A DNA stretch of 64,000 bases from Candidatus Pacearchaeota archaeon (lineage in GTDB: Archaea > Nanobdellota > Nanobdellia > Pacearchaeales > UBA284). How positions within the stretch are numbered: position 1 is the first letter of the stretch; every line of letters starts with the position of its first letter. Under the pieces are notes generated by a model, which searched no databases, was not told where the DNA came from, and saw nothing but the letters and a program-made list of their open reading frames with translations. Where the stretch lies: assembly GCA_026016245.1 (NCBI GenBank), contig CP061211.1, forward strand, positions 29,449 to 93,448, read 5' to 3'. Positions 24,595-52,499 of the stretch are shown one piece after another. The position numbers and the translations under genes were made by a program.

Positions 24595-24852
24595 TTACAT
24601 CAATTCCTCATCCTCTTCTTGGCCCCAGTCATCAAATTCTTCTTGCTCTTCCCCTACTTCATTACCAAATATACTTTCTTCTTTTTTAGCCCAAGGCTTA
24701 TCTGTTTCTTCAGATTCTTCAAGACTATCTTTTTTTTCCTTAAACCCTTTCTTTTCAACTTTAGCTACTTTTATTTTTCTCTTACTTGCTTTTGCTTTCT
24801 TTATCTTTGTTTTTCTTGCCTTTCTTGCTCTTGTTTTTTTCTTTCTTGGCAT
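24595..24852 (-). CDS. Small bipolar protein with a strongly basic N-terminal half and an acidic C-terminal half
   Basis: Starts MPRKKKTRARKARKTKIKKAKASKRKIK and ends EEQEEFDDWGQEEDEELM. Confidence 0.35.
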   Translation of the reverse strand: MPRKKKTRARKARKTKIKKAKASKRKIKVAKVEKKGFKEKKDSLEESEETDKPWAKKEESIFGNEVGEEQEEFDDWGQEEDEELM

Positions 24853-25530: not shown

Positions 25531-26901
25531 GTGAGCAAAAGAGGAAATCGTTGTCACTTAAAAGTAGATAGTGAACGAAAACTTTATAAATACAAAAAGC
25601 ATTGGAAAAATATGACATTGGGACTTATACCTCTTATCTTACTTGCTGGTGGAAATGAACCAGAAGCAACAATTCCTGATACATGTTATGTTTGGGAAGA
25701 TATAACAAAAAAAGGAACTGTTGTGTGGGTAAAAGGATTCTATGGTTATGCTTTAGGCGAGAATCGTAAAGAATCTCTTGAAGAGGATTACCCAAGATGG
25801 ATCAATCCTTTCTTATTAACACATGGATATCCTGCTTTAGATGTAACTTATGATCTTATCATAGATTCTGAAAAAGCCATCAAATCAGAACACGATTATC
25901 AAAATGGTGTGAAATCCTACACCTTTCCTATGTGTCATGATGCTTTCATAAGAAGAGTAGTTGAGCCAGTAGAGCAAAAACTCATAGAAGAACCAAAAAA
26001 ACCAAAAATAAAACAAGATACTACATTTTTGCCACCAGTAGTATTACAAGACACTACTAAAGGACCAGATATTGTTATACAAGACACTATACCAGGACAA
26101 CCGATTATTGTACAAGATACTATAATATTAGAACCAGAAATATTGTCACTTCCTGAAGGCCCAAAAGGATTATTCGCGATGGATAAAAATTTTGGAAGTA
26201 TTGGTGTTTTTTACAGAGATGACAGAGAAAGAGATGAAAAATATTTGGCCATGAATCCAAAACTAAATTTCTTTATCCCTCTAGACAAGAATAAAGCAGA
26301 TATAGGATTAGGAGCTTATGTTTTAAATAATGAGAAGGGTGATGAGAATTTTATAGGTAAAGGTCGTGCTGGTATCCACACATCTTATGCAGGTGGTGGT
26401 GTTGAGATTTCAAGTGATATTGATGGAAGAGTTGATGTAGGACCTTATGCAGTTGTTGGAATTCCTCTACAATATGTAACTATTGGTGCAAAAGGAGAAG
26501 TAGGTATTAATGCTAATGAAAATATAAAGATGAGGCCTTCACTTGAAGGTTTTATTTTTTACAGAGCTCCTAGAGATAATTTCAGATTCAAATTGAGTGC
26601 GAGAAATGGTGTGGATCTTCTTAAAGGACATTATGTTAACAAAGCTAATCTTGATTTTATGATAGGCTCTTTACTTTTTGGTTTAGAAGGAAAAACAAAC
26701 AAGGGAGCAGAGATATGGCCTCATGAAGAAGTGGGAAATGTTATAAAGAGTATTGAAGGAAAAGCCTATATTGGCGGAAGATGGAAATTAGACAAAAATA
26801 CTGGTCTTTATCTAAAAGGCCATGTTTCAGGAAAACATGATAGAGATAGAACATTGAAGGCAGTTGAAGGTGGAATTGAATTAGGTTTAGATTTCTATTA
26901 A
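25531..26901 (+). CDS. Beta-rich secreted protein with tandem V(I/L)QDT repeats and an OMP-like C-terminus
   Basis: The likely start is MTLGLIPLILLAGG (about nt 25612), which gives a signal peptide. The tandem repeats read VVLQDT, IVIQDT, IIVQDT. The C-terminal half is Gly/Tyr-rich with alternating hydrophobic residues and ends GLDFY. Confidence 0.4.
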   Translation: MSKRGNRCHLKVDSERKLYKYKKHWKNMTLGLIPLILLAGGNEPEATIPDTCYVWEDITKKGTVVWVKGFYGYALGENRKESLEEDYPRWINPFLLTHGYPALDVTYDLIIDSEKAIKSEHDYQNGVKSYTFPMCHDAFIRRVVEPVEQKLIEEPKKPKIKQDTTFLPPVVLQDTTKGPDIVIQDTIPGQPIIVQDTIILEPEILSLPEGPKGLFAMDKNFGSIGVFYRDDRERDEKYLAMNPKLNFFIPLDKNKADIGLGAYVLNNEKGDENFIGKGRAGIHTSYAGGGVEISSDIDGRVDVGPYAVVGIPLQYVTIGAKGEVGINANENIKMRPSLEGFIFYRAPRDNFRFKLSARNGVDLLKGHYVNKANLDFMIGSLLFGLEGKTNKGAEIWPHEEVGNVIKSIEGKAYIGGRWKLDKNTGLYLKGHVSGKHDRDRTLKAVEGGIELGLDFY

Positions 26902-26931
26902 GATTTAGATTAAATTTAAAATTTTTTAGAA

Positions 26932-27048
26932 TTATTTAGCAGCCATTCTTCTCTGCTTTCTCTTTCTCTTTTCCCTCTTCATACGTTTTCTCTGCCATTT
27001 CCATCTCATCTGTTTCTTTTTTTTCCATCTTCTGCTTGATCTCTTCAT
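26932..27048 (-). CDS. rpl41e: Ribosomal protein eL41 (L41e). A 38-aa ORF below the ORF-track length cutoff.
   Basis: Minus-strand translation is MKRSSRRWKKKKQMRWKWQRKRMKREKRKRKQRRMAAK, which has the RRWKKK..MRWKW..KR character of the eL41 family. Its ATG overlaps the rpoL TGA stop (ATGA). Confidence 0.55.
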   Translation of the reverse strand: MKRSSRRWKKKKQMRWKWQRKRMKREKRKRKQRRMAAK

Positions 27049-27332
27049 TTTCTGAAAGCTTTCTTGAATTCTCTTGCTAATTCAGAATTAATTTTCTGAA
27101 TCTTGGCAATTGTGTCAGCAAGAATTTTTTTTGAATCTTTTCCAGATGTTTTTAAAACTAATCGGGGATTTTTAGTTGGGTGTTTTCTACTCCAGGCAGC
27201 AACTTCTGTGGCTTTATCTTTCCATAACATACTCCTAAGAAGTTCAGCCATTGTAAGATTATCTAATTCAATTTCAAGCTCATTCTTTTTGTATTTTATT
27301 AACTTGACTTCCATCTTTATTATAAAACTCAA
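27045..27332 (-). CDS. rpoL: DNA-directed RNA polymerase subunit L (Rpo11)
   Basis: NELEIELDNLTMAELLRSML...VAAWSRKHPTKNPRLVLKT matches the Rpb11/RpoL pattern. Confidence 0.65.
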   Translation of the reverse strand: MSFIIKMEVKLIKYKKNELEIELDNLTMAELLRSMLWKDKATEVAAWSRKHPTKNPRLVLKTSGKDSKKILADTIAKIQKINSELAREFKKAFRK

Positions 27333-27342
27333 GAAATCCTAT

Positions 27343-27978
27343 TTAAATTTTTTCCTCTTCCCGTATCTCCTTCATTACCTCTTCCCCCACTTCTTCTTTC
27401 TCTTCTGCTGGCTTTTCCTCTACTTTCTCTATTTCTTTATCTGTTCTTTTCATCCTTTCTAGCAAATCACGAATTCTCGTATGTTTTGTTGTTTCTATAT
27501 TAAAGTCTATGGTTTCTTCTTTTTTTTCTGCTGGCTCTCCTTTCTCTTCTTTTTCAAGGTGCTTTATAAATTCTTTTTCATCCAGAACTTTTTCTTTCTC
27601 TTTCTTTTCTTCTACCTCAGTTTCTGCCTTTTCTTTTTCTTCTTTCTCTTTAAGCAATCTTCTTCTTTCTTTCACTTTTTCATATCTCTTTCTAAGATCT
27701 TCAAGAGTTACTTTTGATGACGGTTTTTCTAATGGTTTTGGTTTAAATCCAGACATTTCTTCTAAAATTTCATGCACAGAACGTCTTGGAATATCTTCTT
27801 CCCTAACATCAAGTGGTTTTTTTATTAATATTACAGGATTTGCTATGACACATCTCTGACAGATTTTTTTAAGTTTGCCATCTATAACAGCACTAACAAG
27901 AACACCCCTATAGCCACATTCCTCACATTCCTCTTCCTTATTAATGTTCATAGATTTTATGGACTCAAACATAAACAC
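27343..27978 (-). CDS. Zn-ribbon protein with a long Lys/Glu-rich coiled tail
   Basis: CEECGY...CQRC ribbon near the N-terminus, then a KE-rich low-complexity region. Confidence 0.35.
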   Translation of the reverse strand: MFMFESIKSMNINKEEECEECGYRGVLVSAVIDGKLKKICQRCVIANPVILIKKPLDVREEDIPRRSVHEILEEMSGFKPKPLEKPSSKVTLEDLRKRYEKVKERRRLLKEKEEKEKAETEVEEKKEKEKVLDEKEFIKHLEKEEKGEPAEKKEETIDFNIETTKHTRIRDLLERMKRTDKEIEKVEEKPAEEKEEVGEEVMKEIREEEKI

Positions 27979-52150: not shown

Positions 52151-52284
52151 GCTCCGGTAGCTCAGTGGCTAGAGCACACGGCTGTTACTACAGCTTTCTT
52201 TAGAAAAGAAAGCTCTAGGAGGTAAAGAAACTATTTTTGCCTGCAGAAACCGTGGGGTCGTAGGTTCGAATCCTATCCGGAGCG
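52151..52284 (+). tRNA. tRNA-Asn(GUU) with a 61-nt intron at the canonical 37/38 position
   Basis: Acceptor stem GCUCCGG/CCGGAGC. D arm GCUC...GAGC. Anticodon stem CACGG/CCGUG. Anticodon GTT at 52184-52186. Intron 52188-52248 has a GCTGT/ACAGC helix consistent with bulge-helix-bulge. T arm GTAGG-TTCGAAT-CCTAT. Confidence 0.75.
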
Positions 52285-52350: not shown

Positions 52351-52499
52351 GGGCCCGTAGCTCAGCCTGGTTTAGAGCACTACGCTGATAGCCTTACTAC
52401 AGCCTCTTAAAGGGGGTGATGGAACTGGAGCGCTTTGCGTTCCACTGTAGTTTGGTTCTAGAAACGTAGGGGTCATGGGTTCGAATCCCATCGGGCCCA
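52351..52499 (+). tRNA. tRNA-Ile(GAU) with a 73-nt intron at 37/38
   Basis: Acceptor stem GGGCCCG/CGGGCCC. Anticodon stem CUACG/CGUAG. Anticodon GAT at 52387-52389. Intron 52391-52463. T arm GGGTT... TTCGAAT. Confidence 0.75.

Follow-up and report, generated by a model that had tools for sequence, protein, structure and literature searches.

A 38-codon gene assigned to ribosomal protein eL41/eS32, missed by annotation, at the end of rpoL in a Pacearchaeota genome

The stretch of DNA analysed here, 64 kb in length and referred to as the window, carries on its minus strand, at 26932..27048, an open reading frame of 38 codons closed by a TAA stop at 26932-26934. Sequence comparisons support the view that this is a real, strongly conserved gene and an orthologue of the archaeal ribosomal protein eL41/eS32; the gene is absent from the source annotation. 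The frame reads ATG AAG AGA ... GCT AAA TAA and gives the peptide MKRSSRRWKKKKQMRWKWQRKRMKREKRKRKQRRMAAK, 38 aa, in which 24 of the residues are Lys or Arg. Both the sequence and the translation were exactly as claimed in an earlier reading of the window (hereafter the sequence-only reading).

A single-sequence search of the PDB with the window peptide retrieved eL41/eS32 chains exclusively. The best were the L41e/eS32 chains 9fny, 6skf, 6sw9 and 6tmf from Thermococcales ribosomes, 36-37 aa in length, with E-values from 7.7e-5 to 3.4e-4, and the alignment was free of gaps, with query residues 1-34 placed on chain residues 1-34. A profile of 22 DPANN homologues (alignment A1) reached a best E of 6.5e-9 against the PDB, and all 27 of its matches at E <= 1 were eL41/eS32, the eukaryotic ones included. 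Since a Lys/Arg-rich ORF could come by chance from purine-rich DNA, a shuffle control was run. The window peptide scored 28.7 bits against a profile of archaeal eL41 of the non-DPANN type, and 5000 shuffles of its residues gave -10.2 +/- 3.5 bits with the same profile and a maximum of 13.4 (z = 11), none of the 5000 reaching the real score. Ungapped identity to Thermococcus eL41 was 20/37, compared to 8.2 +/- 2.1 for the shuffles. Alignments A1 and A2 both show the core M14-R15-W16-K17-W18 without any variation, and the 13 residues ahead of it were conserved as well. AlphaFold2 with alignment A2 placed a helix over residues 3-37 with a mean pLDDT of 89.7; a lone helix fits eL41 but says little for it in particular, and a prediction that leaves out the rRNA cannot reproduce the N-terminal hook, which is buried.

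The archaeal eL41 is a protein of 37 aa, of which residues 1-14 are buried between helices h27, h44 and h45 of the 16S rRNA close to the P site, and after them comes a helix of about 20 residues (PMC7005279). This helix extends to the subunit interface, and in the solved ribosomes of Pyrococcus and Thermococcus the protein lies on the small subunit's interface side. In P. abyssi, R15 touches ac4C1479 of h45 (Coureux et al. 2020, PMC7005279). The protein was renamed eS32 because it is structurally part of the small subunit, and its tryptic fragments are too small for proteomics (PMC11724365). We infer a ribosomal location for the peptide in the present organism as well. The Thermococcales proteins (PDB 6SW9, 9FNY, 6SKF, 6TMF), 36-37 aa against 38 aa in the window, have in common with the window peptide the pattern MKR..R.WKKK..MRWKW, including R15, and a basic helical C-terminal half. 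The window peptide differs from them at residues 4-5 (SS instead of RP), 13 (Q instead of R) and 19-20 (QR instead of IK), and in its C-terminal tail, which ends in MAAK. Two types can thus be written, MKRSSRRW...QMRWKWQRKR for DPANN and MKRRPRKW...RMRWKWIKKR for Thermococcales. The eukaryotic eL41 (RPL41) is 25 aa long, is represented by Pfam PF05162 (Ribosomal_L41) and forms the intersubunit bridge eB14. Its positions 1-21 align with the helical core of the window peptide from M14 onwards (DPANN profile, E 0.006-0.9), and it is without the N-terminal extension of 13 residues that characterizes the archaeal form.

Homologues were searched for with the 38-aa peptide padded with three in-frame upstream residues, FQK. 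Protein databases yielded 76 of them, several named L41e (JGI) or L41E (NCBI) and many 'hypothetical'. Public DPANN gene calls were 63-92% identical to the window peptide and had the core MKRSSRRWKKKxQMRWKWQRKR in common with it; one, from Ca. Woesearchaeota CG1_02_47_18, is named 'LSU ribosomal protein L41E', the JGI name being 'large subunit ribosomal protein L41e'. Conservation among the homologues begins exactly at MKRSS, and the upstream extensions picked by gene callers are mutually unrelated, which fixes the true start. Many of the public DPANN calls (P0001-P0039) carry such spurious upstream starts, with 3-20 unrelated residues added, and are deposited as 'hypothetical protein'. One carries an acetolactate synthase-like name.

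One genome per species was scanned with a 33-nt motif back-translated from WKKKxxMRWKW, and at least 120 loci were found. Among the matches listed, all but one of 80 titles were archaeal, and the taxa comprised Woese-, Pace-, Nano- and Micrarchaeota, Thermococci, Hadarchaeota, Thermoplasmata and MAGs labelled Methanosarcinales. The 120 scan loci listed, 10 earlier loci and the window together formed a set of 131 loci. In nearly all of these the motif lies in an ORF of 32-39 aa that starts with ATG, TTG or GTG 7 codons upstream. Synonymous and non-synonymous codon differences from the window gene stood at 17:4 in locus L070, 11:4 in L001 and 15:4 in L097. Entropy was 1.56 bits at the third codon position against 0.94 and 0.84 bits at the other two, in a calculation limited to codons that the search motif leaves free, because the motif itself fixes first and second positions. 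Comparison at the codon level supports purifying selection on the eL41 reading frame. The identity as eL41 proposed in the sequence-only reading is thus borne out by the end-to-end alignment with PDB eL41/eS32 chains, by conservation across DPANN and other archaea and by this selection. An alternative frame of 30 aa inside the ORF (26936-27028, MEKKETDE...) was also considered and rejected, as the codon periodicity of the variation fits the eL41 frame.

The loci were not uniform in type. Micrarchaeota (L012, L014, L016, L020 and others) carried a distinct subtype, (M/L)GS(I/R)PRKWKKKGRMRWKW...KRRVGEL, often with a TTG start and with a C-terminal RRVGEL tail, conserved within the subtype, that the Pace- and Woesearchaeota type lacks. 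The DPANN type (MKRSSRRW...) was also found on L015 (DATJPO010000025.1), a contig of a MAG labelled 'Candidatus Omnitrophota bacterium', and in several MAGs labelled 'uncultured Methanosarcinales' (L024, L038, L042, L044, L051, L053, L054 and L087). These labels suggest binning contamination or mislabelled bins.

The exact 38-aa peptide was absent from a collection of 15 billion proteins, and the same collection holds RpoL (UZE93999.1), a THUMP protein (UZE93997.1) and a GtrA glycosyltransferase (UZE94001.1) from the window. The source record, deposited as Ca. Pacearchaeota with IB618_ locus tags, is missing the eL41 gene, and an independent Logan assembly of the same sequence has an empty stretch in its gene calls from rpoL to the convergent 456-aa gene. 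That gene callers would pass over this ORF therefore agrees with both the source proteins and the calls of the independent assembly. Pfam PF05162 gave no match to the window peptide even at E <= 10. In the controls it scored yeast eL41 at 42.2 bits, and the verified Thermococcus eL41 at 21.9 bits, also under the cut-off of 22.3; the model has 25 positions and was built on the 25-aa eukaryotic protein, and archaeal members are not reliably recognised by it. NCBIfam has no eL41 model and matched neither the window peptide nor the Thermococcus and yeast controls. Since the verified archaeal control is also missed, the failure of Pfam and NCBIfam to match the window peptide is uninformative. Of the alignments suggested in the sequence-only reading as a check, the one with archaeal eL41 sequences came out in favour of eL41, and the one with Pfam Ribosomal_L41 did not, with a model that misses the verified Thermococcus protein too. 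In published tables eL41 is absent from many archaeal phyla (PMC9932298), and Coureux et al. had voiced the suspicion that so small a protein is hard to detect (PMC7005279).

A frame of only 38 codons, with a low-complexity Lys/Arg composition, without a Pfam or NCBIfam match and left uncalled by two annotation pipelines, might be nothing but a chance opening in the purine-rich, A/T-rich DNA downstream of rpoL. Against this stand the shuffle z of 11, the same ORF architecture at 130 loci besides that of the window, spread over many archaeal lineages (among the matches listed), the mostly synonymous codon changes with their third-position periodicity, and the fact that every PDB match was eL41/eS32. 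We regard a chance origin as extremely improbable, and indeed as already refuted by the conservation. A conserved peptide could still be merely eL41-like, that is, a basic DPANN micropeptide with a nucleic-acid-binding or regulatory role outside the ribosome. There is no ribosome structure for any DPANN archaeon, and the DPANN and Thermococcales types differ at several positions, both of which leave some room for such a role; it is nevertheless very unlikely in view of the equal length and gap-free alignment over residues 1-34, of the invariant residues, which include rRNA-contacting ones of P. abyssi, and of the number of eL41-like ORFs within the 64-kb window, which is one. Orthology to the ribosomal protein eL41/eS32 is accordingly the reading that we keep.

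The gene upstream of eL41 is rpoL, encoding RNA polymerase subunit L (Rpo11) of 89 aa, at 27045..27314 on the minus strand. It matched Pfam RNA_pol_L_2 with 35.7 bits (cut-off 27), and NCBIfam RpoL equivalogs matched it at E 1.8e-12, all below their cut-offs. The window RpoL is identical to UZE93999.1, which is deposited as 'hypothetical protein IB618_00265'; this label is a second annotation gap beside eL41. At 27045..27048, on the minus strand, the TGA stop of rpoL and the ATG start of eL41 join in an ATGA with an overlap of -4. The end of rpoL reads ...AGA AAA TGA; the eL41 ATG is made up of the final A of the AAA codon and the TG of the stop. The overlap with rpoL, with both genes on the minus strand, is therefore present as the sequence-only reading had described it.

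Further upstream, 28 nt from rpoL and in the same direction, the ORF list has a gene of 211 aa (27343..27978, minus strand) whose product contains CxxC...CxxC followed by a Glu/Lys-rich tail. This Zn-ribbon/EK-rich protein gave no Pfam or NCBIfam family match. A homologue with 25% identity (E 2e-9) occupies the same position in L001 (2107-2682, plus strand). Judged from the spacing, the 211-aa gene is probably the first of a three-gene transcription unit that ends in eL41. The window and L001 have in common the order GtrA glycosyltransferase, Zn-ribbon/EK-rich gene, rpoL and eL41, with a class-I tRNA synthetase further along. On the other side of eL41, according to the sequence and the ORF list, an A/T-rich spacer of 30 nt (26902..26931) leads from the eL41 stop to the end of the convergent 456-aa ORF (25531-26901, plus strand), which had no Pfam or NCBIfam match. 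The spacer is likely to serve as a transcription stop region. In L001 the genes just downstream of eL41 are co-directional, namely a 50-aa gene, a Y1_Tnp (IS200-like) transposase and a 278-aa gene, in place of the 456-aa ORF of the window, so that L001 and the window are unlike at this site. In other lineages, the Pfam-annotated neighbourhoods placed eL41 beside Dus, beside an iron-dependent repressor with RFC, or beside a tRNA-intron endonuclease. In a Thermococci MAG it lies between ORFs of 267 aa and 218 aa with no rpoL detected, a neighbourhood unlike that of the window.

Other features of the window were recorded during this work. An 85-aa ORF at 24595-24852 on the minus strand combines a highly basic N-terminal half (KKKTRARKARKTKIKK...) with a C-terminal half that is highly acidic; the Logan assembly lists it among its gene calls, and it had no Pfam or NCBIfam family match. 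Rfam found two tRNA genes on the plus strand, at 52151-52284 (134 nt, 56.2 bits) and 52351-52499 (149 nt, 54.9 bits), and ARAGORN found no tRNA anywhere in the window. The lengths of 134 and 149 nt suggest long or unusually placed introns.

Conservation of the ORF downstream of rpoL in related genomes had been proposed as a check in the sequence-only reading. The ORF itself is conserved, but a place behind rpoL was detected in few loci. Among the matches listed, three of the 131 loci had an rpoL ahead of eL41, namely the window and two relatives, L001 (GCA_026395795.1) and L070, both Pacearchaeota MAGs, as seen with a narrow detector, an iterated profile from Pacearchaeota RpoL only, by which a distant RpoL could be missed. 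The -4 overlap occurred in 2 of 119 distinct eL41 loci (among the matches listed), and the other of the two has a different upstream gene. A GGAG or GAGG preceded eL41 in 31 of the 119 loci, again among the matches listed; neither was present in the 20 nt before the ATG of the window gene. In L001 the two genes are 74 nt apart, and GGAGG lies 9 nt ahead of the eL41 ATG; in L070 the junction reads TGA-ttggaaa-ATG, a spacer of 7 nt, so that the ATGA overlap is absent in both of the relatives that have rpoL upstream. Compared to L070, the window is short of 5 nt (TGATT) at the junction. Loss of TGATT would have removed the ancestral rpoL stop and made rpoL two codons longer, up to the TGA now shared in part with the eL41 start. 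Since the overlap is not conserved in the relatives and other lineages place eL41 beside unrelated genes, coupling to rpoL is not a selected feature of the family. We regard the overlap, which is recent and lineage-specific, as a local side effect of genome compaction and not as a regulatory link under selection.

As to expression, eL41 would be the last gene of the co-directional cluster formed by the Zn-ribbon/EK-rich gene, rpoL and eL41, and it would be transcribed together with rpoL. Ribosomes ending at the TGA of rpoL would then restart at the overlapping ATG of eL41, that is, by termination-reinitiation. Such coupled expression is the most likely mode because the eL41 ATG follows rpoL without a spacer and has nothing like a Shine-Dalgarno sequence ahead of it. 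Huber et al. (2019, PMC6728339) reported that ATGA-overlapping gene pairs are coupled by termination-reinitiation in Haloferax volcanii and E. coli. By analogy rpoL and eL41 may be translationally coupled as well. The window pair resembles the pairs of that study (PMC6728339) in being co-directional, in its -4 overlap and in being without an upstream Shine-Dalgarno sequence. It is unlike them in that it joins a subunit of RNA polymerase to a ribosomal protein and not two subunits of one complex, and in that its coupling is presumed from the arrangement of the genes. Orthology to eL41 and the last place in the cluster, with co-transcription with rpoL and termination-reinitiation as the most likely mode of expression, form a reading in which we have high confidence.

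The gene could also be real and yet be expressed independently of rpoL translation, the overlap being a neutral by-product of compaction. The A/T-rich stretch inside the 3' end of rpoL could act as an internal promoter and give an mRNA with a short leader or none, although such a stretch tells little in a genome as A/T-rich as this one; direct initiation of a non-Shine-Dalgarno kind would serve as well. Several of the comparisons point in this direction. The overlap was not kept between relatives, L070 having its 7-nt spacer and L001 its 74-nt spacer with a GGAGG of its own, and one 5-nt indel is enough to account for it. Only 31 of 119 eL41 loci (among the matches listed) have GGAG or GAGG, which means that many start without Shine-Dalgarno, and eL41 is in most lineages a solitary gene with unrelated neighbours. 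On the other hand, ATGA pairs were coupled in experiments in an archaeon and a bacterium (PMC6728339), and a junction without a spacer, as in the window, could not accommodate a ribosome-binding site of its own for eL41. Nor do the two modes exclude each other. We consider independent expression possible but rather unlikely, and continue with termination-reinitiation from rpoL as the preferred reading.

A stronger proposal can be built on the same observations, that the 5-nt deletion made an obligatory translational link between an assembly subunit of RNA polymerase and a ribosomal protein, and that eL41 is near-universal in DPANN, its reported patchiness in Archaea being largely an annotation artefact. 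We find this improbable and put it forward as speculation. If true, the obligatory link would couple what the transcription machinery puts out to what the translation machinery does, in a very small (~0.7 Mb) genome. The window gene itself is a further member of a known family and an ordinary kind of gene, and it brings no new biology. Its value lies in annotation, as a ribosomal protein is missing from the gene list of this genome. The gap has a systematic cause: a model is wanting in NCBIfam, the one in Pfam is based on the eukaryotic protein, and the ORF is skipped or wrongly extended by gene finders. Since the scan found eL41 in many archaeal groups, a six-frame census would probably revise the phyletic pattern of this protein.
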